Shown here piece after piece: positions 2,697 through 29,661 of a DNA stretch of 31,808 bases. The DNA lies in NCBI GenBank assembly GCA_964347045.1, contig CAYFXC010000012.1:1-31808 (forward strand), given 5' to 3'. The stretch's first letter is position 1, and every line of letters starts with the position of its first letter. Origin of the DNA: an uncultured archaeon (GTDB lineage Archaea; Asgardarchaeota; Hermodarchaeia; Hermodarchaeales; Hermodarchaeaceae). The notes under the pieces were generated by a model that was given only the letters and a program-made list of their open reading frames with translations, did not search any database and was not told the origin of the DNA. The position numbers and the translations under genes are program-made.

Positions 2697-3459
2697 GAGG
2701 TGTTCTCCCCTCTTGAATTCGATCTACTTGCCCAGACTTCAGGAATATTGCACGGTCAGCCAAAGTAGCAATTTCTGTCTGATGGGTGACAGCAATGATG
2801 GTGGTACCTATCCTCTTATTGAGCTGCTGTAGCAGCTGCCAAACTTTTTGACTTGTTTCAGCGTCGAGATTACCAGTGAGTTCATCAGCTAAGAGCAGTC
2901 GTGGCTCCTTGGCTAAAGCTCGGGCGATGGCTACCCGCTGCTGCTCTCCACCGCTCAGCTGAGCAGGATACTTGCCCATATGGTCCACCAATCCAACGAG
3001 CGCCAAACACTTCTGAGCACGCTCCCTTACAACAGAGAAGGTGAGGGGAGTTAATGCAAGACCAATCTCTACGTTCTCTAGTGCTGTCAGGACTGGAAAG
3101 AGATTATAGAATTGGAAAACTAGCCCTATCTTTTGGGCTCGAAACCATGTGCGCTCTCCATCAGAATAGTTCGATACTTCTTCACCGTCAACAAACACGT
3201 GACCAGAGGTGGGATGATCAAGCGTTGAAATCATATTCAGGAGGGTAGTCTTGCCACATCCACTTGGACCTAAAACAACTGCAAAATCACCCTCATCAAA
3301 TTTCAATGATAGGTCGCGTAAGGCATAAACGATTGTCTCGCCCATTCGATACTCCTTGCATACATTTTGGAGTTCAACAATTGTTGGAGCCACATTGCTC
3401 ACGGCCGAATAATCTACCAAGCCTAACTGAACTTTTTTTGACGAGGGGTAACTGTTCAA
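2689..3459 (-). CDS. ABC transporter ATP-binding protein, LolD/MacB-like
   Basis: Walker [11 protein letters not shown]-loop VFQFYNL, signature [15 protein letters not shown], Walker B LLLADE(L)TGNLD, H-loop VTH. True start may be slightly downstream. Confidence 0.95.
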
Positions 3460-3526: not shown

Positions 3527-5116
3527 ATGTTGGCTTCTAAAAACTATCAGCGTAGAATGCAACTGCTAGTCTCTTTAGGCCTTCTTACCATTCTGGCTGT
3601 TGGGATCCTAATTCCAATTGATGCCTTTAGCAATAGTGAGCCTGAGTCTTATTTTCAACATCACCAGAAATCAAATGAAACCAACTTTCAAAACCACTCC
3701 GAAAAATGTGATATTCTAAAACAACTTCAGTGGGAACAAAAAAATCACATATTTCAACCTTCACAGATAAAACAAGACCAATCTCAGATGAAGAAATACC
3801 AAGACGTAGGTTATCAACGAAGTTTCTGGACATATGATTTCACTGCTTCATTTTTCTATGAAGTAGATTCAACATTGCTCGCCATTGGTGAGTACAGCCT
3901 TGTTTTCATGGAAAATCGTTGCATAACCGAACTGGGAGAAACCGCTGCGATAGGGAAGACAGAGACCATACGCGATGAATTTGATAACACAATCTATCCT
4001 CGAGTCACAGACCTTGCAGGGCATCCCAATGGAACTTTAGGGGATATCGATGGTGATCCTAGAATCATAATCTTGCTTTCTAGTAATCGCGCGTTTTACT
4101 TTTCTGAGCGAAATGAGCTGCCTTTTGAATATTCGAATTTGTGTGAGATGATTTACCTCCATTACAGGATTCCAGTGGTAAATGTTATTGCACATGAATT
4201 TCATCATCTCATCTGGTTTAACAATGAATGGGATGAACACCACTTCATCATAGAAGCTTTAGCCCAATATGCCATGTATTATGCCGGTTATCTAGAATCT
4301 AATAATAATCTCGCTCCGCAGGTACCTTTTTTTCTTTCTCATCCAGAGGACTCTCTTCTGTATTGGAATATGTACAATGAAGGGGGAATGGATGCGGTCA
4401 TTGATTACGGGAGTGGGTATTTGTTTGCCTTCTATATCGCGGAAAAATATGGTGTTGATATTCTTCGAAACCTGATAACGGAGCCTGCTGATGGACCGCA
4501 CGGGATTGAGACTGTTCTGCACACAGCAGGTTATGATATCACATTCAATGAACTCTACTTGAATTGGATCACGACATTAACAATTGATGAACTAGGATTC
4601 GACAACAATCTCTATGGCTTTGAGAACCTAGATGCTCGAATAACCAGCTACAATCCTGTCGGTGTGCTACCTCTTCGTAATCAAGCAATTTCGCTTCGGT
4701 ACTACGGTTTTCACATCCATAAACTGCAAGTCCCACCTGATGGTTTTACAGTCCAAATTAACAAATCCTCAAATCACACCATTGGAATCTCCATCGTTGC
4801 ACACGATGCATATGGCTGGCACATTTACCAAAACCTACACGATGAACAGGACACCATAATTACAGATAACTTCACGGGCAATCGGACCGATGTAGCATAT
4901 ATCATTACCAGCTACATGTCGAATTACACGCCAATATCAACCAACACTATTGGACTTGGACCTGAAACGGAGATCGACATTTCAATAATCCCAACACACA
5001 CAGAATCGGAAGTTCCTTGGAGCTTAATCATTCTTTTACCAGCATTCTGTGGAATCTGCCTTCTTTTCGTAATCATGATTACGATAAGGAAAAGGAAGTA
5101 TTTTGAAGAAAAATAA
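3527..5116 (+). CDS. Secreted, membrane-anchored zinc metallopeptidase (HEXXH; M6/M30-like)
   Basis: N-terminal hydrophobic signal, GDIDGDPRIIIL, AHEFHHLI...E zinc motif, DYG..YLF..Y, C-terminal TM followed by RKRK. Confidence 0.8.
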   Translation: MLASKNYQRRMQLLVSLGLLTILAVGILIPIDAFSNSEPESYFQHHQKSNETNFQNHSEKCDILKQLQWEQKNHIFQPSQIKQDQSQMKKYQDVGYQRSFWTYDFTASFFYEVDSTLLAIGEYSLVFMENRCITELGETAAIGKTETIRDEFDNTIYPRVTDLAGHPNGTLGDIDGDPRIIILLSSNRAFYFSERNELPFEYSNLCEMIYLHYRIPVVNVIAHEFHHLIWFNNEWDEHHFIIEALAQYAMYYAGYLESNNNLAPQVPFFLSHPEDSLLYWNMYNEGGMDAVIDYGSGYLFAFYIAEKYGVDILRNLITEPADGPHGIETVLHTAGYDITFNELYLNWITTLTIDELGFDNNLYGFENLDARITSYNPVGVLPLRNQAISLRYYGFHIHKLQVPPDGFTVQINKSSNHTIGISIVAHDAYGWHIYQNLHDEQDTIITDNFTGNRTDVAYIITSYMSNYTPISTNTIGLGPETEIDISIIPTHTESEVPWSLIILLPAFCGICLLFVIMITIRKRKYFEEK

Positions 5117-5146
5117 TGATTGATGGTTATTGGATATCCGATACGC

Positions 5147-5175
5147 TTTTACTCACAAACCCAAGCCTTACTGAA
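5147..5175 (+). repeat. Module-boundary repeat A, copy 1 (TTTTACTCACAAACCCAAGCCTTACTGAA)
   Basis: 29 bp identical to the copy 2 core (6229-6257). Intergenic, between convergent genes. Confidence 0.9.
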
Positions 5176-5237
5176 CTTTATTCTTTGGTTCTCAATTCTT
5201 CTGTCAATTGTAAATAAATATTGGAAAATTTGTCGGT

Positions 5238-5678
5238 TTAAAGTAATGACTTGGTTTCGTCAGGAAACCCTTTGTATTCAATGACGCCGAGTTGTTGATA
5301 CAAATCCATCAGATCTAAAACCTGCGTTACCTTTTCGATGACCTTCCCATTAGCAAGCCGATAAACGATAATACCTGTTGAGGTGAATTTCTTGCCGGTG
5401 GGAGCTAGTCCGTGATATTCTCCAGTGTGGGTTCCCGTACTTTTAATCTGAAACCATACAGTATCCCCATCCGCGGCGATGTGGGTAATTGTCCGTTGTA
5501 TATCAGGAAACCCCTTGTATATCGTTTTTTCCATTTTTTTGTAAGCGTCTCTTCCCTGCAATTTCATTGGATGATCAACAAAATCAGGGGCGATAATTTC
5601 ATCGATTAGAGTTTCATCTTTGGTATTGAAAGCTTTGGCTAATTTCTGAACGAGCGCTTTGTTCTCCTCTATAGACAT
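5238..5678 (-). CDS. SnoaL-like ester cyclase (NTF2 fold)
   Basis: EENKALV...FVDH...FPD....I..I.ADGDTV......TGTHTGEYHGLAPTGKK pattern. Confidence 0.9.
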   Translation of the reverse strand: MSIEENKALVQKLAKAFNTKDETLIDEIIAPDFVDHPMKLQGRDAYKKMEKTIYKGFPDIQRTITHIAADGDTVWFQIKSTGTHTGEYHGLAPTGKKFTSTGIIVYRLANGKVIEKVTQVLDLMDLYQQLGVIEYKGFPDETKSLL

Positions 5679-5787
5679 TGGACATCATACTCCGAGTGTA
5701 AACCTGTTCAACATGTGAAATGAACCCATTGGATTTTAAGGGTATCAATTTACTAGCGTTTATTCTAGTTTAGATGGAGTTGATGTC

Positions 5788-6207
5788 TTGCTGAACGAAA
5801 CGAGTCCAGAAAGGAAAGCGTTGTTAAAAACAATTGCAGATCTTGATCGAACCTTTTCCGAAGATCGCGCTGAGGACATGGGTAAGTTCTTTGCCCCGAA
5901 TGCACGGCTCATGTTCCCCAATATGGAAGACATCTTGGGTCGAGAATCAATTCAACAAACGTTTGTTGACCTAATGGCAGAATATTCAACAGATTCATTT
6001 CACCCAAACCGGGAATTGATCGACATCTATGTGCACAGGGCATATACTTTAGGAAGTTTCATAGAAATACGCACACCCCTCAAAGGGGGGCCGAAAGAGA
6101 AAATACACGGACGTCTTCTGGAAATCTGGCAACGCTCCTCAAAGGGCAACTGGGAGATAATCCGTTTCATGACTGGAAGGTATTCTGATTTGGAGCATAT
6201 CGAATAA
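5788..6207 (+). CDS. NTF2-like / DUF4440 family protein
   Basis: 139 aa: FFAPNARLMFP...ILGRESI...GRLLEIWQR...GNWEI. Confidence 0.8.
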   Translation: MLNETSPERKALLKTIADLDRTFSEDRAEDMGKFFAPNARLMFPNMEDILGRESIQQTFVDLMAEYSTDSFHPNRELIDIYVHRAYTLGSFIEIRTPLKGGPKEKIHGRLLEIWQRSSKGNWEIIRFMTGRYSDLEHIE

Positions 6208-6208
6208 C

Positions 6209-6257
6209 TGGTTGTACGACCGACGTCGTTTTACTCACAAACCCAAGCCTTACTGAA
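6209..6257 (+). repeat. Module-boundary repeat A, copy 2 (extended TGGTTGTACGACCGA... + core)
   Basis: Core identical to copy 1. The upstream TTGTAC is shared with copies 3 and 4 at the same offset. Begins 1 nt after the stop codon of 5788..6207. Confidence 0.9.
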
Positions 6258-6353
6258 TTTTTTTTCTTCTGAATTTCAGGGAATGCCTAACCTACATTTT
6301 TTAAAAATATAAAAAGAAGTTTGTACGATTAGTAAGAAAATTGGGGTGATGGT

Positions 6354-6692
6354 ATGCCGACGCTTTTTTGCGTGTACAATATAACTGATAAACAAAAGGC
6401 TGAAGAATACGACAACTATCTCAACAGCAAGAAAATACCAGGGATACGAGGGGCACCGTGGTGTACAGCGTTCCATACATGGAGGATAAACAAGGTTCTA
6501 GCACCTGCGGTCTCTGAACCAGAGGGAGAATTACCCTCAGAATCTCCTTACATGTATATTGCAAAAATAGAGGTTTCCGATTTAGATGCGATGGTCAGTT
6601 TTCTCGGTACTGATGCAGGAAAAGACTTTATGAAATCCTGGAGCATTTACATTGATCCTAAAGCATTCTTTACAATGGGAGAGGAAGTCTAA
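6354..6692 (+). CDS. Dimeric alpha-beta barrel protein, HapK/EthD-like
   Basis: 112 aa. MPTLFCVYNI...EEYDNYL...IPGIR...SPYMYIAKIEVSDLDA pattern resembles HapK/EthD families. Confidence 0.6.
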   Translation: MPTLFCVYNITDKQKAEEYDNYLNSKKIPGIRGAPWCTAFHTWRINKVLAPAVSEPEGELPSESPYMYIAKIEVSDLDAMVSFLGTDAGKDFMKSWSIYIDPKAFFTMGEEV

Positions 6693-6921
6693 TTTCCACT
6701 GATAGCCTCTGTCACAACTTACAAAATAATTTGAGAAATATATCCGATTCTGAACTGTTGCTTGAATTGAGCTTTTACATGCGAAGCACCAATTCTATTG
6801 ATAGTATTAGATGAGTCTAGCATTTGTAAATTCAGCTTCAATGAAGTGTTTCCAATAGAACTGTTGAAAAATTTCCAAAACGGTTAGAAGAAATAATTAG
6901 GTAACACTTTTTTGGATGACC

Positions 6922-6970
6922 TGTTTGTACAACCGAGGCTTTTTTACTCACAAAACCAAGCCTTACTGAA
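6922..6970 (+). repeat. Module-boundary repeat A, copy 3
   Basis: Core 6942-6970 matches copies 1/2 at 28/29. Upstream TGTTTGTACAACCGA. Confidence 0.9.
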
Positions 6971-7057
6971 GTTCTATCGTCAGATTAGGTTGATCTACCA
7001 TCTGAAAAAGAAGAAACATTAACTGGAATGATGGAATGAAATTCCGGTGAACGCCTA

Positions 7058-8143
7058 ATGGGAAATACTGTGGGCAATGACGTCTATGAAAGACTTGCGG
7101 ATGCGATGGATCGCTTACCCAACGCCTATCCTAGAACCGCATCTGGAGTGGAGGTCGAGATACTTAAACGTATTTTCACTCCAGAGGAAGCTCAGCTCGT
7201 GCTACATTTACACGGGGAGATGGAACCTCTTGAAATAATTACTAAACGTGCGGGACTAGCCATTGAAGATGTGGAATCGAATTACTTTGATCTTGCAAAA
7301 CGGGGACTTGTCTGGTTCAGGCAAAGGAGTGAAAAACCGCATTTCCGAATGGCACCTTTTGTAGTGGGAATCTATGAGGCCTCCCTTGAAAATATGGATC
7401 ATGATTTTGCTCACCTCATTGAACAATATTTCCGCGAGGGAGGTGTGGCAGGGATAATGAAACCTCAGCCTGCCATTCATCGTGTTGTTCCAGCCTATCA
7501 ATCAGTTAAGTCAGAGTGGATTCTCCCCTATGATGACATTCGGGCAATTATGATGGCAATGAAAACGTTTCGTGTCCGTGATTGCATTTGTCGTGCGCAA
7601 CAGGACCACATTGGTCGTAGATGTGATTTTCCAGTGAAAATGTGTCTTAGTTTTTCACCAATCGAACAACCAACCAGCTCTAATGAAGACGGACTGGATT
7701 CACAGATTACTCAAAAAGAAGCCTTAGCGATTCTCGATACAACTGAAGAAATCGGCCTTGTCCACACCGTAAGTAATGTCGCTAAGGGAATCTATTATGT
7801 CTGCAATTGTTGTGGATGTTGCTGTGGCGTCCTCCGGGGCATTACAGATTTTGGTATTGCTAACTCAGTAGCCCACGCTAATTATTTCGCTGTGATTGAT
7901 CCTGATGAATGTGTAGGTTGTAAAACCTGCCTTGACCGCTGTCACGTGAACGCCATTACTGAACAGGATGATATCTCGGTCGTCGATGAAACACTATGTA
8001 TTGGTTGTGGGTTATGTGTCACAGGATGTCCAAACGAGGTTGCGAAACTCCAACGAAAACCAGACGAAGAAATTGTGGAGCCACCAATTGATAGAACTAC
8101 TTGGGAACGAGAACGATTGCGAGGCAGAGGACTCAATAAATAA
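7058..8143 (+). CDS. 4Fe-4S dicluster domain protein
   Basis: CxC...C...C, CNCCGCCC and two ferredoxin motifs (CVGCKTCLDRC, CIGCGLCVTGCP). Confidence 0.9.
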   Translation: MGNTVGNDVYERLADAMDRLPNAYPRTASGVEVEILKRIFTPEEAQLVLHLHGEMEPLEIITKRAGLAIEDVESNYFDLAKRGLVWFRQRSEKPHFRMAPFVVGIYEASLENMDHDFAHLIEQYFREGGVAGIMKPQPAIHRVVPAYQSVKSEWILPYDDIRAIMMAMKTFRVRDCICRAQQDHIGRRCDFPVKMCLSFSPIEQPTSSNEDGLDSQITQKEALAILDTTEEIGLVHTVSNVAKGIYYVCNCCGCCCGVLRGITDFGIANSVAHANYFAVIDPDECVGCKTCLDRCHVNAITEQDDISVVDETLCIGCGLCVTGCPNEVAKLQRKPDEEIVEPPIDRTTWERERLRGRGLNK

Positions 8144-8166
8144 TAATGTTCTGGAAAAGTAGAAAT

Positions 8167-8214
8167 GGGTTGTACGGACAACGGCTTTTTACTCACAAAC
8201 CAAGCCTTTCTGTA
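8167..8214 (+). repeat. Module-boundary repeat A, copy 4 (diverged)
   Basis: GGGTTGTACGGACAACGGCT + TTTTACTCACAAACCAAGCCTTTCTGTA: one deletion and two substitutions in the core. Confidence 0.85.
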
Positions 8215-8235
8215 CGCGCAGCCTACCCAAGAGGT

Positions 8236-9084
8236 CTATTTTCGAGCTTCAACAACTTCAAGGTTTTTATTAAAATCCTTTTTTCCACCTGACAGAGACT
8301 CAAAGAACACGATATCCTTGAATCCGACTTCTCTAATTATTTGCTCAAGGTTCTCTCGTGTATATGCAACCATGCTTGATGCATGGAGGGTTACATTATT
8401 GGTCTCAGCGTCTATGATGTAATATCTTGTTGTAGCAACATGTTTCTCTTGGTCCCAGAAGTTTTCCATCAGGCACAGGTGTGGTTTCGGACTGAACAGT
8501 CCCTGCTTTGACGAGAACCATGAAGCGGAGCTTTTTCCTACCTGTTTCACTGTCTCGTACCGGTTGGGTTCAGCGATGAAAAGACCACTTTTTTTCAGTG
8601 AATCATATGCCTTTTTGAGTACGCGTTTTATATCCACTGGTTTGAAGACGTTGAACTCACCGTAGATAAATAATACAACATCATAATTATCTCCGTAATC
8701 CGCGGTCCTGATATCCTCAAGAACATAATCAATCTCAACCTCATCTTTGATCGCCTGTTCTCTGGCGTATTTGATAGAAGAAGGGCTGAAGTCTATCCCT
8801 GTACAGCTATGTCCAAGCTTGGTCAACCGGTTAGAGTATAACCCAGGCCCACAGGCTAAATCCAGTATTTTGGATGGTTTTCCTCCTAACTTGTTGTGAA
8901 TCCAATCAACGTGTCTATCGACTATTTCGGATCTTCTGCTGGCGAAATCGTGTTCCTGCGTAAGGTGCTGCTTAAGCATCCTCTCACTGAATCCTGAATC
9001 GTTCCAAGGAATCTTCTCACCCTCACTCCAAGGCTCAGAAGTCTCGATCCTTGTTATTAACTGCATTATGTTCATGATTGACAA
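8236..9084 (-). CDS. Class I SAM-dependent methyltransferase
   Basis: KILDLACGPGLY motif I, GIDFS..SI.YA, YDVV. Confidence 0.92.
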   Translation of the reverse strand: MSIMNIMQLITRIETSEPWSEGEKIPWNDSGFSERMLKQHLTQEHDFASRRSEIVDRHVDWIHNKLGGKPSKILDLACGPGLYSNRLTKLGHSCTGIDFSPSSIKYAREQAIKDEVEIDYVLEDIRTADYGDNYDVVLFIYGEFNVFKPVDIKRVLKKAYDSLKKSGLFIAEPNRYETVKQVGKSSASWFSSKQGLFSPKPHLCLMENFWDQEKHVATTRYYIIDAETNNVTLHASSMVAYTRENLEQIIREVGFKDIVFFESLSGGKKDFNKNLEVVEARK

Positions 9085-9132
9085 GCCTCATCGGATATAA
9101 TGGGGCAGGATAGAAGCCACATCTGATATAAA

Positions 9133-9160
9133 TGGTAGTACAGTAATCTTTTTGCTCACA
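9133..9160 (+). repeat. Module-boundary repeat A, copy 5 (highly degenerate, truncated)
   Basis: TGGTAGTAC...TTTTTGCTCACA matches the left half and first 11 nt of the core, at the next gene boundary. Confidence 0.5.
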
Positions 9161-9272
9161 GAATCACGCAGCTCTCACATTATCTAAGGAAGGGAACGTA
9201 CCATAAAGGAGAGCATGATGTGAAACGTACGAACATCTAATGAATCGTGTTCTGTGATTCCTCTGAATTGTA

Positions 9273-9302
9273 ATAAAAGAGGAAAGGGAGGCAGAGCCTC
9301 CC
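9273..9302 (-). terminator. Hairpin + pyrimidine tract, putative terminator
   Basis: GGGAGGC-AGA-GCCTCCC (9286-9302) followed on the minus strand by TTTCCTCTTTTATT. Confidence 0.5.
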
Positions 9303-9328
9303 ATCGAGCTGAAGAGGTTTGAATAGGT

Positions 9329-9439
9329 CTAAGAGGTTCTGCGACGAATTAGGATGACACCGATCACGATTACAATCATAACAAAAACTCCTCCACCAAT
9401 CGCGGCGATTGCCCAATTATAGGAAATGATGGGCCACAC
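9329..9439 (-). pseudogene. Orphan C-terminal membrane anchor (gene remnant or micro-protein)
   Basis: Translates as VWPIISYNWAIAAIGGGVFVMIVIVIGVILIRRRTS*, a TM helix + RRR typical of surface-protein tails. In-frame stop just upstream. Confidence 0.45.
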
Positions 9440-9569
9440 TACGAATGTAGATAGGGATTGGCATTGACGTAGATGGTATCAAGAATATTTAGGACAAGGT
9501 ACCGAGTTTCTGCGAGTAGAGTTCCTAATGTAAGAAATACTAGTTGAACTCCGGCTTGCGTTCCGAATT

Positions 9570-9598
9570 AAAAGAAAAAAGGAGCCTGTAAGCTCCTT
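9570..9598 (-). terminator. Hairpin + T-tract terminator of the 239-aa membrane protein gene
   Basis: AAGGAGC-CTGTAA-GCTCCTT (9579-9598) followed on the minus strand by TTTTCTTTT. Confidence 0.55.
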
Positions 9599-9639
9599 CA
9601 ATGAAACCTACGGGCATCAAACAAACCTCAATCGGTTCT

Positions 9640-10359
9640 TTAGCGTTCTACCCGTGAATCCATGAAGGAGCCGATGAGAATGATCCACCAAGCCAATGCA
9701 AGGATAGTAAACGCTATCTCAGTTCCTGGCGGTATCAAAATGGTTGGATACATAATCAACAAGACAGACGTCATTGCATACGCTATGAACCAAAGGACCA
9801 CTCCCAGTGTAATGGTAAAGATCCATTTTACTCGTGGTGTTCCACGAACTCGATCGAGCCGGAGATAATTATATGTTGAAATCAATGGAATTATCAGTAA
9901 ATAGATCACATTGTAGATTAGAAATGACCAATAGACAGTGCCTTCGGGGATTCTGAGGATAGTCATTATTTCATATACTATGAGTCCAATGGCTGGGAGA
10001 ATGATTGTCCATTTGCGTTGACTGAAGAAATCAGGGAATGCCAAGATAATGACATAGTATACTAGGAAAAACTGGCCAACCGCCCACAAACCCCAGAAAA
10101 TATAGTAGTAGAGTGATGTCCATAGGGAGAGTGGCTGATACATTGCAAAAGCAAAGATTGTGTATGTTAACATTAGGAAAAGGGCGATGAGAAATCCCAG
10201 AATTGCTAGGGTACGTTTTCTGCCAGTGCTGGTGAACAGGGTAATTAATTGGTATAGCATGGCTAATACGATTGGAATCAAAAATAAGACTAAAAGACTA
10301 AGTTGAAAAATATCTAGTTGCAGAGCAACTTCCCTCCGCTCCCGGATTTTAATAATCAT
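9640..10359 (-). CDS. Hypothetical integral membrane protein (~7 TM)
   Basis: About seven hydrophobic segments separated by short basic loops. Start uncertain. Confidence 0.75.
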   Translation of the reverse strand: MIIKIRERREVALQLDIFQLSLLVLFLIPIVLAMLYQLITLFTSTGRKRTLAILGFLIALFLMLTYTIFAFAMYQPLSLWTSLYYYIFWGLWAVGQFFLVYYVIILAFPDFFSQRKWTIILPAIGLIVYEIMTILRIPEGTVYWSFLIYNVIYLLIIPLISTYNYLRLDRVRGTPRVKWIFTITLGVVLWFIAYAMTSVLLIMYPTILIPPGTEIAFTILALAWWIILIGSFMDSRVER

Positions 10360-10695
10360 TTTTAAGTATTATCTTTTTCAGGAATATCCTTTTAGCGAAT
10401 TTTCGGAGGTTAACAATTCTACAACAATTATTGGGTTCACGCTATTATTTTTGTTTAGAAACTTGTTTACTTAACTGATATTACTATAAGAGAAGTTCTA
10501 TGCACAAGATTAATCGACTATGAAAACCCTGCTTCAGAAATGTATCTGCTGAAGCATAATCTCAGGTTGTTTGAACAACAGGCTAAGAAATTAATTTGGT
10601 ATGTATATTCAGAAAAGTTTCAAAGGTTATATTTTTTAAAGATGAGTATTCCCTAAGAGTTTGTTTATTTTATTCGTTTTCCTATTATGTTAAGT

Positions 10696-10732
10696 TGTGA
10701 GTGTAAAAGATTTAATACTCACATAATGTGAG
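10696..10732 (+). promoter_or_regulatory. Putative BRE/TATA with overlapping palindromic operator upstream of the HtrA-like gene
   Basis: AAAAGA-TTTAATA (10705-10717) about 30 nt before the ATG. Palindrome CTCACAT-A-ATGTGAG at 10718-10732. Extra TGTGAGT half-site at 10696. Confidence 0.5.
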
Positions 10733-10742
10733 CTAATTATCA

Positions 10743-11690
10743 ATGCCAATCCCAACTCACCCTTTTCAAGAAGAGCTTATTCAAGCTGTAAACCGCGTTA
10801 TACCAAGCGTTGTAAGTGTTAGCACAGTCGCATTGATGCGAAACTATTATCGAGTACTTCCGATTGGAGGTATGGGCTCTGGCGTAGTTTTGGATGATCA
10901 AGGGCATATTATTACAAACCGACACGTCATTGACAAGGCTCAACGAATATCGGTTGCTGATATCAATGGGGGTCAACACGAGGCAACCTTACTTGGTGGT
11001 GATCGACTCGTTGATATTGCAATACTTAAAGTCGAAAACGGTGGGCTTGAACCGGCTTCACTTGGAGATTCAGATAAGCTCGAAGTGGGACAACTCGCAA
11101 TAGCCGTGGGCAATCCCTATGGATTCATTCTTGGCGGACCTACAGTGACGACCGGCGTTATTAGTGCAGTTCAGCGACAGATCCAGGCAAGAAATATCAT
11201 AATGGAGAAGCTCATTCAGACTGATGCCGCAATTAACCCAGGAAACAGCGGTGGACCTCTTTGCGACATTAACGGCTGCGTTGTTGGGATAAGCACGGCC
11301 ATGCTGCCATTTGCGCAAGGCATTGGGTTTGCGATTCCAATTAATACTGTGAAAGAAATTGCTGAAGAAATTATTGAATTCGGGCGTGTAAGACGTTCTT
11401 ATATGGGCTTTTTGGGTGTGGGAGTGAATCCGCAGATAGCTAGCGCATATAAACTTGCAGTATCTGAAGGAGTGTTAATCGCTCAAGTGGTTGAATCGAG
11501 CCCCGTATCACGTGCAGGATTCCGTGAAGGTGATATCATCATAGCCTTTGATGGAGAGAAAATCATCTCAATGGGTGAAATCCAAGGACGACTCAGAAAG
11601 CGGGAACCGGGAACCCGTATCGATGTCACGGTGGTCCGAGGGCAAAGCCAAAAGGTGCTTCCTCTTATTCTGGGGGAGGTTCCAGGGTAA
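10743..11690 (+). CDS. htrA: HtrA/DegP-like trypsin serine protease with PDZ domain (no obvious signal peptide)
   Basis: GSGVV, TNRHV (His), DIAILKV (Asp), IQTDAAINPGNSGGPL (Ser), C-terminal PDZ (SPVSRAGFREGDII). Confidence 0.93.
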   Translation: MPIPTHPFQEELIQAVNRVIPSVVSVSTVALMRNYYRVLPIGGMGSGVVLDDQGHIITNRHVIDKAQRISVADINGGQHEATLLGGDRLVDIAILKVENGGLEPASLGDSDKLEVGQLAIAVGNPYGFILGGPTVTTGVISAVQRQIQARNIIMEKLIQTDAAINPGNSGGPLCDINGCVVGISTAMLPFAQGIGFAIPINTVKEIAEEIIEFGRVRRSYMGFLGVGVNPQIASAYKLAVSEGVLIAQVVESSPVSRAGFREGDIIIAFDGEKIISMGEIQGRLRKREPGTRIDVTVVRGQSQKVLPLILGEVPG

Positions 11691-22935: not shown

Positions 22936-22970
22936 GCCCAGCACCATGCTGGGCTCGTTCTTCTTTTTTT
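22936..22970 (+). terminator. Hairpin + T-tract terminator
   Basis: GCCCAGCA-CCA-TGCTGGGC followed by TCGTTCTTCTTTTTTT, 13 nt after the stop codon. Confidence 0.6.
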
Positions 22971-23048
22971 CGATGTGTCGAAAACTAAGAATTAACTAAT
23001 TTTTCTGACGTGAAACATAAATATTTTCGATGCATCGAAAACTGAGAA
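22967..23048. promoter_or_regulatory. Two copies of palindromic site TTTTCGA-N4-TCGAAAA(CTRAGAA)
   Basis: 22967-22984 TTTTCGATGTGTCGAAAA and 23024-23041 TTTTCGATGCATCGAAAA (perfect palindrome), both followed by CTRAGAA. Confidence 0.6.
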
Positions 23049-23366
23049 AAATCATAAAAAGTAAATCAAATACAAAAACAATTGAACAACCATTACTACA
23101 AATGTATATCAAATACAAACTAAAAAACATAAAATGAATTAAACATATAAAAATACAACGATATAATTCGCTCTAGCGAAATAAACTCAGAAATGATGAT
23201 CAAACCAAAGTAATAACAAAAAATCCTCCCAAAAGACCATCACCGCATTGAAATTTTATGATGTGAAACTGGTGTTTCACGTCATTGAACCTAAAACTAG
23301 CCTATTTGAACTGGTTGAACTCCTTAAAACAGGATTATTGAACTAGGTATTATGAAAAATTATTCT

Positions 23367-27167: not shown

Positions 27168-28115
27168 GTGAAACTGGTTATGGAACCCGAAGGTCTGACC
27201 TTTAAAACGCAACCTAATCCTATTCGAATGCTCGTTTCTGAAGCGATTGATCGTTTTACCGAGTATGTTGCCATTGAACGCGGTGGGAGTCAAAAGACAT
27301 CCCGTGTATACCGTTATGATCTCGAGATGTTCTTCCAATACATTGGTGTACCCCCCCAACAGGTACAAGCACATCATGTCCGAATGTTTTTAACCTATCT
27401 AAAAAGCGATAAGGGATATGCTAATGCTTCATTACGTCGAAAGCTTGCCTGTCTTCGATCGTTTTTCCGGTTCTTAGTTCGAGAAGAAATGGTTCTAACT
27501 GATCCAACGATGGGTTTAGCTACTCCGAAACTTAGCCAACGCCTTCCCCGAGCCATTTCATCTGAAGATATTAACCGACTGCTTTGGGCCGCACGAAACT
27601 CTGAGAAAAACGCCAAACGGACTCACGCGATTTTCCAGGTCCTTTATAGCACGGGAGCCCGGGTTTCAGAGCTCTGTGATATGAATGTTGAGGACATTGA
27701 CTTCTCAGAAGGCACTATTCGAGTGCGGGGTAAGGGCGATAAAGAACGAATGGTGTTATTGACGGTTCCAGCTATGAATGCGATTATTGAGTATTTGCAG
27801 TTTCGACCCGCTGAGGGCCCTCTCTTCCTGAGCCGTAGAGATCGGCGACTCTCACCGTTGACCGTGCAGCGAACAGTGCGAGAGGTCGCACAACGGGCGG
27901 GAGTCACTTCTAAGGTCACACCTCACGCGTTGCGTCACTCCTTTGCTACTCATATGCTAGAACGAGGAGCGGATGTTCGGGTTTTACAGGAACTCCTAGG
28001 GCATTCGAATCTAACGACCACACAGATTTACACTCATGTCTCGTTAGCCCATGAACGAGCAGTCTTTCAACGTACACACCCACTAGCAGAAACGGATCCA
28101 GAAGGAGCCTATTAA
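27168..28115 (+). CDS. xerA: XerA/XerC-D family site-specific tyrosine recombinase
   Basis: N-terminal SAM-like domain. Catalytic residues in LYSTGARVSEL (R), RGKGDKER (K), TPHALRHSFATH (H-x-x-R) and LLGHSNLTTTQIYTHV (H, Y). Lacks the integron-integrase-specific insertion. Confidence 0.88.
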   Translation: MKLVMEPEGLTFKTQPNPIRMLVSEAIDRFTEYVAIERGGSQKTSRVYRYDLEMFFQYIGVPPQQVQAHHVRMFLTYLKSDKGYANASLRRKLACLRSFFRFLVREEMVLTDPTMGLATPKLSQRLPRAISSEDINRLLWAARNSEKNAKRTHAIFQVLYSTGARVSELCDMNVEDIDFSEGTIRVRGKGDKERMVLLTVPAMNAIIEYLQFRPAEGPLFLSRRDRRLSPLTVQRTVREVAQRAGVTSKVTPHALRHSFATHMLERGADVRVLQELLGHSNLTTTQIYTHVSLAHERAVFQRTHPLAETDPEGAY

Positions 28116-28164: not shown

Positions 28165-28271
28165 AATACTCTGTTCACTCTACCTTCTTGAAGATATTTT
28201 TGAGCTTTCTATTGATTTGATGTAAAAATTATATCAACGTTCTCTCATAATTTTTCGATTTGTGTTTAATA

Positions 28272-28418
28272 TATTCGATGTAAAGAAAATAATTGATGTA
28301 GCCCTTTTTGTTCAGTATTAGCCTAATCTTTCACATGTAGTTATAAACATATAATAGTCTAAAATAATCTACTAATAGTTATGCAAATATATTGTTAATG
28401 TTTTCGATTAATAGAAGA
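28272..28418. promoter_or_regulatory. Two copies of TWTTCGAT-N2-AWAGAARA site in AT-rich spacer
   Basis: 28272-28289 TATTCGATGTAAAGAAAA and 28401-28418 TTTTCGATTAATAGAAGA. Confidence 0.5.
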
Positions 28419-28596
28419 CACATGATAGATAGATATAGTATAATAATATATTATAAAAAATCAAACTTTGTTAAATAGTTTAACAAAATTACAAAGGAGT
28501 TAACTAATCAGAAACATTATACTTTTACCTAGCGGATTTTTTTAAAAACTTAGCTTTTAAGAGGAGGAACGACAAACAATCTACAGAGAATCTCAA

Positions 28597-29187
28597 GTGA
28601 CACTAATGATTGAAATTGTTAGCCTTGAACAACTCATTAAGACTATGAAGAAGAGCACCGACCCTATGGAAAGGGCACAGGCAGCCCGAGGTATCGGTCA
28701 CCTAAAAAAAGCTGAAGCCGTCGAAGCCCTCCTAGAGGCACTTGGAGATTCTGATTACGACGTAAGGCAAGCGGCGATTTGGGCTCTCGAGCAGATCCGA
28801 GACGAACACCTCGTTGAGGAGCTACTTGATGATTTGAATCACGAAGACCCGGATGTTCGGCGTGGCGTCGTCTATGTTCTCGGTGAAATTGGTGACCGAG
28901 AAGCAGTTGAACCACTTTGTAGCGCACTTGAAGATGAGAACTTGTATGTTCGAAAAACAGCTATTGAAGCATTGGCAGCTATTGGCGATTGGAAAGCTGT
29001 TGACCCAATAATCGCCAGATTAGAAGATGAAGACCTATATGTGCGACAAGCGGCTGCAGTGGCCCTAGGTGAAATGGGAGAAATGCGTGCTGAAGATCCC
29101 CTTCAACGATTACTTCGAACAGAGAAAGAGCTCATTGTACGTCACGCCATTAAGATAGCATTAGCAAAACTTACGGGCGGAGAATAA
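28597..29187 (+). CDS. HEAT/PBS-lyase repeat protein
   Basis: About five 31-aa repeats: L.D.D..VR..A..ALG.IGD..AV.PL. Confidence 0.92.
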   Translation: MTLMIEIVSLEQLIKTMKKSTDPMERAQAARGIGHLKKAEAVEALLEALGDSDYDVRQAAIWALEQIRDEHLVEELLDDLNHEDPDVRRGVVYVLGEIGDREAVEPLCSALEDENLYVRKTAIEALAAIGDWKAVDPIIARLEDEDLYVRQAAAVALGEMGEMRAEDPLQRLLRTEKELIVRHAIKIALAKLTGGE

Positions 29188-29290
29188 AACTTTCCTTCAA
29201 TTATCACGTTTTTATCGAAGCCTTCCTAGCTTGATTTGAAATGAAATTTGTTTGCATAAAATTGTTATACAATTAATGGTATTTTTAGTG

Positions 29291-29399
29291 TTTTCGATTT
29301 AAAGAAAATCAATGATATAGAGTTTAATGTTGTTTTCATCTAAAATATTAATGAAAAATAAATACAAATATTTGTTATAATTATTCGATGAATAGAAAA
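29291..29399. promoter_or_regulatory. Two further copies of the TWTTCGAT-N2-AWAGAAAA site
   Basis: 29291-29308 TTTTCGATTTAAAGAAAA and 29382-29399 TATTCGATGAATAGAAAA. Confidence 0.5.
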
Positions 29400-29661
29400 C
29401 AATTGAGAACAACATAAGGCTGTATCAATTGTTAAAATTACAAATTATATAAAATATGTTAAAATAAAAAGTTAATTAAAAATTTGGTGAGCAACAATTT
29501 CTCTAAATTTAGAAACGATCCATAGGCAGTTTTGATTATCTATTATGAATTTAAGATAAGATTCTAAAGGACTTCAAGAAAAAGAATGATAGAATAGGGA
29601 AAATAATGACTGTTTCCCTATTCCTTTGGTGTTCAATTGACTTGAATTATTAGTGATAGTA

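Follow-up and report, generated by a model that had tools for sequence, protein, structure and literature searches.

The 31,808-nt stretch of DNA analyzed here (the window) contains an array of accessory-gene modules separated by co-oriented copies of a short intergenic site, and arrays of the same site are found in other species of the genus Candidatus Hermodarchaeum. The modules have a fixed polarity relative to the site, breakpoints between species fall at an invariant block within it, left and right site halves combine freely, and the cassettes are far more similar between species than core genes are. We think it probable that site-specific recombination, by an enzyme that is as yet unknown, built these arrays as an integron-like cassette platform. 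A sequence-only reading of the window had proposed gene capture by iterative site-specific insertion. This is supported as the best explanation but remains an inference; neither an excision circle nor an empty site nor an enzyme has been demonstrated.

Structure of the Array and the Cassette Site

In the cassette site, which spans approximately 50–55 nt, an invariant 13-nt block (TTTTACTCACAAA) separates a left arm that is semi-conserved from a right half that is conserved. There are three types of left arm (a, b, and c) and three types of right half (A, B, and N). Four full copies are present in the window, all on the plus strand and all with the core TTTACTCACAAACCCAAGCCTTACTGAA (Table 1). 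Three have at most one mismatch to this core, where 0 are expected from shuffled sequences; the fourth was detected via a repeat finder and the profile. The sequence-only reading had counted five same-orientation copies, which holds for these four. The fifth, at 9150, is the left part of a site joined to a type-B right half. The spacings of 1082, 713, and 1245 bp were reproduced, as was the module content (SnoaL, DUF4440, a 112-aa ORF, a 4Fe-4S protein, and a SAM methyltransferase). The statement that no copy exists elsewhere in the window missed related features, namely a right-half remnant at 3417–3441 and a core-sharing palindrome at 10716.

Table 1. Features of the array, its anchor and the nearby recombinase gene.
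Feature	Position	Strand	Description
Left terminal junction	3390..3441	+	Chromosomal flank joined to right half only, CCAAGCCTAACTGAAC + T-run (3417-3441); bounds array on left
Module 1, 529-aa protein, family F3	3527..5116	+	No Pfam match; weak HExxH-type match below cut-off
Site copy 1	5128..5188	+	Left arm type a GGATATCCGATACGC, core TTTTACTCACAAA, right half A (CCCAAGCCTTACTGAAC + T-run); 64 bits
Module 2, SnoaL-like cyclase + DUF4440/SnoaL_4 protein	5238..6207	5238-5678 -, 5788-6207 +	Domain matches
Site copy 2	6209..6268	+	Left arm type b GGTTGTACGACCGACG, core, right half A; 62 bits
Module 3, 112-aa ORF	6354..6692	+	No family match; own AT-rich, TATA-like stretch upstream
Site copy 3	6923..6984	+	56 bits
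Module 4, 361-aa protein	7058..8143	+	C-terminal 2x[4Fe-4S] ferredoxin domain
Site copy 4	8168..8214 (within 8166-8218)	+	1-nt deletion at core-right boundary, decayed right end; 37 bits
Module 5, class I SAM methyltransferase, family F20	8236..9084	-	Domain match
Hybrid junction (core at 9150)	9140..9192	+	Left half of site TTTTTGCTCACA joined to type-B right half GAATCAnG..CTCACATTATCT
Variable segment, 59-aa ORF + 239-aa polytopic membrane protein	9237..10616	-	Unique to source species
Conserved HtrA-upstream unit	10617..10732	+	Ends in palindrome TACTCACATAATGTGAG (10716-10732); attI-like native partner site N
Anchor gene, HtrA-like serine protease (Trypsin_2 + PDZ)	10743..11690	+	Conserved
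XerA-type tyrosine recombinase	27168..28115	+	NF040815, 271 bits vs cut-off 220

At the left terminal junction, homology to the full site of genome G014 starts at +10, counted from the A of ACTCAC. Module 1 is 82–85% identical in DNA to copies in G011, G012, and G014, where its neighbors are different. The variable segment has no counterpart beside the anchor in G008, G006, or G013. The profile scores of the full copies fall from left to right and are followed by a half site; polar decay along the array was considered and rejected, as the G008 array has no such trend. A translated read-through extension of the upstream protein's C-terminus was likewise rejected as the role of the conserved 26 nt of the site, since a hand check found that the frame differs from that of the upstream gene.

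The profile was searched against the whole 2.58-Mb assembly, a genome that is 89% complete. Matches with E<0.05 were confined to contigs C12 (5), C42 (3), C43 (1), C40 (1), and C17 (1). Copies within each contig are co-oriented, and the four contigs besides the array's own are short. Site halves also occur separately, the right half alone at joints at 3417, C42:3705, and on C17, and the left half alone at 9150, C46:4338, and C42:5720. The type-B right half is also present on C40 and C17 and in G012, G006, and G005. An Rfam gathering scan gave 0 matches for the site. A search of viral contigs also gave 0 matches, so no vector was found.

Arrays in Related Genomes

Of 14 other species in the genus, 9 have co-oriented arrays of the same site, whereas 0/46 genomes searched outside the genus have one; a reversed control pattern gave 0 matches in the same search. 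All genomes compared are incomplete MAGs (72–91%). Scattered copies, or an identical gene order across relatives, would have refuted the sequence-only reading. Instead, the copies are clustered and co-oriented, and gene order varies between relatives with breakpoints at the repeats. The arrays in G000, G008, G006, and G013 all end at the same HtrA–Rce1 anchor and differ in their modules and module order, and across genomes each module family has a single fixed orientation relative to the site. An independent Logan contig shows the same order as the window and the G006 order was recovered on three or four JGI contigs; thus, the arrays are not an assembly artifact.

Modules shared between species are 77–96% identical, but the flanking core and anchor genes are just 64–76% identical. 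Module 2 (SnoaL), for example, matches its G013 and G008 copies at 94–95% over 1.09–1.12 kb, with anchor genes at 70–72% (94.8 vs. 72% in one comparison). This excess of module over core-gene identity points to horizontal exchange. An exact look-up of the SnoaL cassette protein returned only the source sample's own contig. Two JGI contigs carry relatives at 82 and 72%, in gene neighborhoods that look cassette-like; these were seen at the protein level only, without DNA.

Modules of two to five genes occur, the five-gene case being an Opp operon, and the cargo is of a detoxification or resistance type, e.g., ACR3 with ArsR, esterases, and methyltransferases. The first gene is reversed in 2/5 modules of the window and 5/8 modules of G008. 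The sequence-only reading had argued from the constant orientation of the site, whatever the direction of the flanking genes, that it is not a simple promoter or terminator. In the window, a plus strand stop codon precedes each of the four full copies and the argument is weak; it holds in the relatives, where many modules have reversed terminal genes.

Breakpoints and the Chromosomal Partner

Among 208 inter-species HSPs, 45 start at −20 to −1 and 30 end at +30 to +39 relative to ACTCAC, where about one is expected by chance. Switch points were analyzed in 77 unique junctions. Pairs with the same left and a different right side have identities of 0.87 (−9 to −1), 0.95 (0 to +8), and 0.48 (+9 to +20), against a background of 0.47. 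Pairs with the same right and a different left side have identities of 0.56, 0.96, and 0.79 over the same intervals. Homology between junctions therefore changes partner inside the 13-nt block TTTTACTCACAAA. All nine combinations of left arms a, b, and c with right halves A, B, and N were observed.

The palindrome TACTCACATAATGTGAG in the HtrA promoter is an attI-like entry point, a chromosomal partner that shares only the block with the cassette site. Joints resembling attR, with a cassette arm fused to the HtrA palindrome, are found in G008, G014, and G003. In G012, G004, and G006 there are joints resembling attL, in which right half A comes after the HtrA-upstream unit. In G013 the joint between the last cassette and the anchor has no core and lies approximately 100 nt upstream of the palindrome. 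Not all joints are thus at the block, which counts against our interpretation.

The same palindrome lies between an ArsR/HTH_20 regulator and a divergent sHSP-like gene in 19/19 genomes of the family. There it follows the TATA box of the sHSP-like gene and precedes its start codon, often with extra half-sites. This placement fits an operator, and the HtrA palindrome is unlikely to be the chromosome's dif. The invariant block is also a half-site of this palindrome, which resembles a transcription-factor operator, so part of its conservation could be regulatory; this too counts against site-specific recombination as the full account. The site might be primarily a terminator or insulator, or a stress-regulated promoter piece with a half-operator. 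Modules would then be swapped when copies recombine through ordinary homology or microhomology, also with DNA taken up from outside, and no dedicated enzyme would be needed. We consider this unlikely. It would fit the half-site common to the HtrA and sHSP promoters, the arrays without a nearby recombinase, the G013 joint outside the core, and the two T-runs on either side of the conserved 26 nt (archaeal RNA polymerase terminates at T-runs). The homology switch is nevertheless confined to the invariant block and not spread over the ~50-nt shared site. Hybrids of type A, type B, and the HtrA palindrome have only the block in common, too short for efficient homologous recombination. No consensus hairpin was found, and half of the modules have a reversed first or last gene, so that a promoter or terminator role cannot fit every copy.

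Comparison with Known Recombination Sites and Repeats

attC sites form an imperfect hairpin and are recombined as a single-stranded substrate, and the integrase gene intI, whose product has an extra domain, adjoins attI. Integron cassettes are mostly single, promoterless genes and are co-oriented. A dif-type site is 28 bp long, a 6-bp spacer separating its two inverted 11-bp arms, and in pdif modules the flanking sites alternate in orientation (XerC/D and D/C). The sequence-only reading had held that the site is neither attC nor dif, and our tests bear this out. The boxes RYYYAAC (R'') and GTTRRRY (R') at 40–130 nt apart were found in 0/38 copies on either strand, and neither box is in the conserved core. 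RNAalifold predicted 0 pairs from 35 copies, and single-strand DNA folds of both strands were no better than chance (z −1.75 to +1.17 vs. shuffles). The best dif-type arms in the consensus match at 6/11 positions, which 397/500 shuffles equal. The absence of the inverted binding arms that tyrosine and serine recombinases usually need also counts against our own interpretation.

An ordinary integron fragment (CALIN) or a Xer/dif-module array with divergent sites is on this evidence very improbable. An XerA gene does lie about 16 kb from the array, and attC arrays, mostly CALINs, are enriched in Asgard MAGs (Ghaly et al., 2022, PMC9668308). The sites, however, lack attC boxes, a consensus fold, and 11-6-11 symmetry and are all co-oriented instead of alternating, and the recombinase scores 154.9 bits against an integron-integrase cut-off of 265, passing the XerA model instead. 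Archaeal cassette arrays reported so far are of the attC type only (PMC9668308).

The arrays resemble sedentary chromosomal integrons and CALINs, including archaeal ones (PMC9668308), in being one-directional series of small accessory-gene cassettes between repeated sites. Site copies within a lineage are alike, cassettes are common to several species, the cargo is of the detoxification or resistance type, and the chromosomal entry site has just a short core in common with the sites of the cassettes, a relation like that of attI to attC. They differ in having no attC hairpin, R/L boxes, IntI, or recombinase beside the entry site, in cassettes with their own promoters and up to five genes in either direction, and in a crossover block of TTTTACTCACAAA vs. 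G|TT. Like Acinetobacter pdif/dif modules and IMEX (CTX, TLC, and VGJ phages and the gonococcal island), the modules lack a recombinase, are bounded by short sites, are presumably moved by a host enzyme, and stack at one chromosomal site; as in some IMEX attP sites, the element's site has only one good arm. Unlike in those systems, there are no 11-6-11 inverted arms, the sites are co-oriented, and the chromosomal partner resembles a promoter operator, not the chromosome's dif. Integrative elements in tandem at one att (e.g., islands at tRNA gene 3′ ends) also duplicate att at each joint with fixed element polarity, but the Hermodarchaeum units are 0.7–5 kb without an integrase and the repeat is not the 3′ end of a gene.

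REP and MITE copies occur genome-wide in both orientations and are palindromic or have terminal inverted repeats. With REP/BIME, MITEs, and "mobile promoters" the site shares being a short conserved intergenic repeat beside unrelated genes. Its copies, in contrast, are not scattered or palindromic, have a single orientation, occur in just a few arrays, and lie at breakpoints between species.

Candidate Enzymes

The sequence-only reading had suggested looking for a recombinase that co-occurs with the arrays. None was found in or beside any array examined, which counts against site-specific recombination. The genome has two tyrosine recombinases, the XerA type in the window and one on contig C9. 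The latter was rejected, as it has no orthologue in the genus. XerA is described as housekeeping, is the sole tyrosine recombinase conserved across the genus, and lies 10–19 kb from the anchor in five species. It is a candidate by elimination and the only one with any support; its action on the site is inferred without binding or catalysis data, and we think it rather doubtful that XerA is the enzyme.

The separate site halves would fit another origin, in which the modules are non-autonomous transposon-like units with a left end CCAAGCCTTACTGAAC.. and a right end ..TTTTACTCACAAA, inserted precisely after ACTCACAAA. The site would then be merely abutting ends, moved by a trans-acting HUH, IS110-type, or unknown transposase. 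A direct repeat (TTACTCA/TTACTGA) includes TTAC, the target of IS608, and contig C78 has an IS110-family gene. That gene was rejected as the enzyme because it is sporadic, with an IS110-like gene in only 3/15 genus genomes at 22% identity. No serine recombinase, Y1 transposase (Y1_Tnp), Cas1, or DDE_Tnp_1 was found in the genome, whose 89% completeness leaves their absence unproven. Fold tests gave no subterminal hairpins, and neither target-site duplications nor terminal inverted repeats were seen. We regard a transposon-like origin as improbable. One TnpB-like fragment is located elsewhere in the genome.

Proposed Mechanism and Implications

Under site-specific recombination, the window would be one array of a genus-wide mobile gene-cassette system. 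Each cassette would comprise a single accessory gene or a few, in either orientation and under promoters of their own, and as a circle would carry one ~55-nt site. A trans-acting site-specific recombinase may exchange strands within the invariant block. Recombination of cassette with cassette, or of cassette with chromosome, would lead to insertion, excision, and reordering in a fixed direction. Chromosomal partners would share only the block, the main one being the HtrA promoter palindrome. The circular intermediate, the conservative site-specific chemistry, and the enzyme are all inferred.

We found no publication on the Hermodarchaeum site or array. To our knowledge, no platform for stockpiling and exchanging single genes is well understood apart from integrons. 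The arrays indicate another such design among Asgard archaea, one whose site is different, which has no integron integrase, and whose self-expressed cassettes cross between species whose core genes are just ~70% identical. Such exchange has a bearing on how accessory, possibly bacterial, genes spread in the lineage that gave rise to eukaryotes. It may be, although we would stop short of calling it probable, that Hermodarchaeum chromosomes capture and exchange genes by a mechanism distinct from that of integrons, in which the host XerA or an unrecognized recombinase, possibly directed by a winged-helix factor reading the CTCACA half-site, joins a 55-nt asymmetric cassette site to promoter-embedded entry sites. 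Concrete targets for experiments are the exchange block of 13 nt, the cassette site of 55 nt, and the attI-like partner in the HtrA promoter. If such a distinct mechanism operates, cassette shuffling would be a main way in which accessory genes move within the closest archaeal lineage to eukaryotes.

The Repeated Site and Its Array

The window covers the first 31.8 kb of its contig (C12) in an assembly of 83 contigs (2.58 Mb, 89% complete). The sequence-only reading had described five co-oriented copies of one intergenic site separating self-contained modules of one or two accessory genes. The repeat is confirmed, with four copies on the + strand scored by a profile built on the copies themselves (see table). 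In three of the four full copies the 28-nt core, TTTACTCACAAACCCAAGCCTTACTGAA, is intact or differs at a single position; shuffled sequences gave no such match. Of the proposed fifth copy only the left part, TTTTTGCTCACA, is present; the remainder is a different conserved sequence, here called type B. Three other species also have type B, as do contigs C40 and C17 of this genome. The gene content of the modules was checked and is as originally described. The module order is reproduced by a Logan contig from run ERR2564004, and an array in another species of the genus (G006) is reproduced and extended by three to four JGI metagenome contigs. The arrays are therefore not assembly chimeras.

Coordinates of features in the window and elsewhere in the genus (C, contig of the same genome; L, locus)
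Feature	Position	Strand	Remarks
Right-half remnant	3417-3441		CCAAGCCTAACTGAAC + T-run; left closure of array
Site copy 1	5126-5178	+	64 bits
Site copy 2	6208-6260	+	62 bits
Site copy 3	6921-6973	+	56 bits
Site copy 4	8166-8218	+	37 bits
Hybrid junction	9150		TTTTTGCTCACA, then type B, GAATCAnG..CTCACATTATCT
Hairpin + T-rich run	9283-9300	-	GGGAGGCTCTGCCTCCC; downstream of 59-aa ORF
Palindrome TA[CG]TCACAwwATGTGAGTA	10716-10732; C20:16587-16605 (L072 about 1588); C10:77345		in window, TACTCACATAATGTGAG
Palindromes	22966-23055		TTTTCGATG..ATCGAAAA; related to ~39-nt repeat
Tyrosine recombinase (XerA)	27168-28115
~39-nt repeat, four copies	28258-28425; 29277-29406		..TTTTCGAT.TAAAGAAAA..
HEAT-repeat gene	28597-29187
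Second tyrosine recombinase	C9:121087-122139 (L030 1210-2262)		350 aa
IS110-family (DEDD) recombinase	C78 (L096 450-1550)		1.6-kb contig
~120-nt repeat	C2 (end); C19, C44, C46 (starts); C66:2085		contains GTGTCACAATAACATGCAAAAGTGTCAGAATAGCAC
ACR3/SBF transporter + ArsR	L021 4274-5810; L025 2350-3913; L027		two-gene cassette

In an alignment of 35 copies the left arm of the site is partly conserved, a T-run followed by ACTCACAAA is nearly invariant, and the right half, CCCAAGCCTTACTGAAC and a T-run, is well conserved. Three types of left arm recur: GGAYATCCGATAYGC (type a), GGTTGTACGACCGACGCC (type b), and the native region upstream of an HtrA-like protease gene, a unit of 85 nt (type c). The site had been held to be neither attC nor dif, and this is borne out. 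The attC boxes are absent from all 38 copies examined, there are no inverted arms beyond chance, RNAalifold finds no consensus pairs, and neither strand folds better than shuffled sequences. Rfam has no match to the site. The units TTACTCA / TTACTGA, repeated directly 19 nt apart, are its sole internal symmetry; in type B, CTCACA is repeated in a similar way at equal spacing.

Distribution

Across the whole assembly, all profile matches with E<0.05 lie on five contigs (C12, C43, C42, C40, and C17) and share one orientation within each contig. The copies are thus clustered, not scattered. The site also punctuates a second array, which runs through C46, C43, and C42 (loci L003, L002, and L001). 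The end of C46 and the start of C43 both lie inside a site and overlap by 55 nt, so the assembly graph branches at that point. The modules of this array include those for a GNAT protein, a TetR regulator, an amidohydrolase, a PEMT-type methyltransferase, an Opp-type ABC operon, a PNPOx protein, and a carboxylesterase; the five-gene operon spans C43 to C42 as a single large module.

The relatives were searched with a 25-nt pattern allowing up to three mismatches. Co-oriented clusters were found in 9 of the 14 other species of the genus. Candidatus Hermodarchaeum yapensis Yap4.bin9.105 is among these genomes, which makes the source of the window an Asgard archaeon of the Hermodarchaeum type. There were no matches in four sister-genus genomes and 42 genomes of the phylum's other families, and the reversed pattern used as a control matched nothing.

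A second repeat family of ~120 nt is found at five contig ends in the genome of the window. It contains two direct GTGTCA units 21 nt apart and bounds the C46-C43-C42 array at its left end, and there is no transposase near these copies. It is probably another family of cassette junctions.

A Proposed Entry Site Upstream of HtrA

At the end of the array in the window, the HtrA start codon is immediately preceded by an attI-like palindrome, itself preceded by arm c. Joints of an attR-like kind are present in three species (G008, G014, and G003): at the exchange block (TTTTACTCACAAA) the sequence passes from a cassette arm, be it type a, type b, or another type, into the right half of the palindrome and the HtrA start. 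The converse, attL-like joint has arm c followed at the block by the right half of the full cassette site, type A (G012, G004, and G006), or by type B (G005). Counting the palindrome side as a third right half (N), all nine combinations with arms a, b, and c are present. In no genome were both reciprocal products found, and arm c is absent from the incomplete assemblies of the three attR-like species. In G013 the last cassette meets the anchor without the core, at a point ~100 nt upstream of the palindrome; events of other kinds occur too.

We collected 77 unique block-containing junctions and grouped their outer flanks.

Sequence identity between junctions according to shared flanks
Pairs	-9..-1	0..+8	+9..+20
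Same left, different right flank	0.87	0.95	0.48
Same right, different left flank	0.56	0.96	0.79
Neither flank shared (background)	0.53	0.91	0.47

In pairs with the same left and different right flanks, identity falls from 1.00 at +8 to 0.48 at +9, which places the partner switch inside TTTTACTCACAAA. Plain homologous recombination would spread crossovers over the whole 50-nt site, and this is not the pattern of the junctions.

The palindrome is not unique to HtrA. Every one of the 19 genomes in the family carries a near-identical sequence, TAGTCACAWWATGTGAGTA, often accompanied by extra half-sites. It separates the TATA box of an sHSP-like gene from the start of that gene, which is divergent from a gene for an ArsR/HTH_20 regulator. 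In the genome of the window this regulator is encoded on C20. The palindrome at the HtrA-like gene also lies between a TATA box and the start codon. The simplest reading is that it is the operator of a small heat-shock or stress regulon that includes HtrA. Read in this way, the exchange block in cassette sites doubles as an operator half-site, whether by descent from the entry site, shared recognition by a protein, or coincidence.

Modules Compared Between Species

ORF maps were drawn for 17 loci. Arrays in four species (G000, the genome of the window, G008, G006, and G013) end at the same conserved gene pair, the HtrA-like protease and an Rce1-like gene, and differ in module content and order; homology ends at the site. 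Module families recur in several species with a constant orientation relative to the site. They include SnoaL+DUF4440, carboxylesterase, Zn-dependent alcohol dehydrogenase, alpha/beta hydrolase, PNPOx, GNAT acetyltransferase, PEMT-type methyltransferase, a 529-aa protein, and an ACR3-type transporter with ArsR. The last is an arsenic-resistance unit moving as a cassette.

When the species were compared all against all by BLASTN, 45 of 208 alignments began 1-20 nt before ACTCAC and 30 ended 30-39 nt after it (~1 expected by chance). The SnoaL module of the window is 94.8% (G013) and 94.0% (G008) identical over 1.1 kb, including intergenic DNA, whereas the anchor genes beside these arrays are 72 and 71% identical, respectively. 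Overall, identity between species is 77-96% for cassettes and 64-76% for anchor genes. Cassettes are far less diverged than the surrounding genome, which argues for exchange between species after their divergence.

Candidate Enzymes

None of the arrays examined contains or adjoins a gene for a recombinase or transposase. No serine recombinase, Y1 transposase, Cas1, or DDE_Tnp_1 was found in the 89% complete genome of the window, which encodes two tyrosine recombinases. The one in the window passes the archaeal XerA model; in five species synteny is conserved, with 10-19 kb between it and the HtrA anchor. The other is divergent, stands at a contig end, and lacks orthologues in the genus; toward the C terminus its sequence weakly resembles ribosomal protein L40e (zinc ribbon). 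It probably belongs to an integrated element. A stand-alone IS110-family gene is preceded by a non-coding leader of ~450 nt, as in bridge-RNA elements, and is sporadic (3 of 15 genomes of the genus). Because the other candidates are missing, sporadic or unique to one genome, XerA is a candidate solely by elimination, and its action on the site has not been shown. Since the cassette site has no inverted arms, a canonical Xer reaction is disfavoured. IMEX elements include one-armed sites.

Just downstream of xerA, two copies of a ~39-nt repeat stand on each side of a HEAT-repeat gene. This HEAT-repeat gene adjoins arrays in other species.

Comparison With Known Gene-Capture Systems

The cassette site fails every structural criterion of integrons and dif modules, and the literature consulted on integrons in Asgard archaea describes the attC type only. 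The functional likeness is to a sedentary integron, in which cassette sites and an entry site have only a short core in common. Comparative genomics supports the proposal that the array is a gene-capture platform, although neither its mechanism nor its enzyme has been shown. What sets this site family apart is its 13-nt exchange block, the pairing of each of three left arms with each of three right halves, and an entry site embedded in a promoter.
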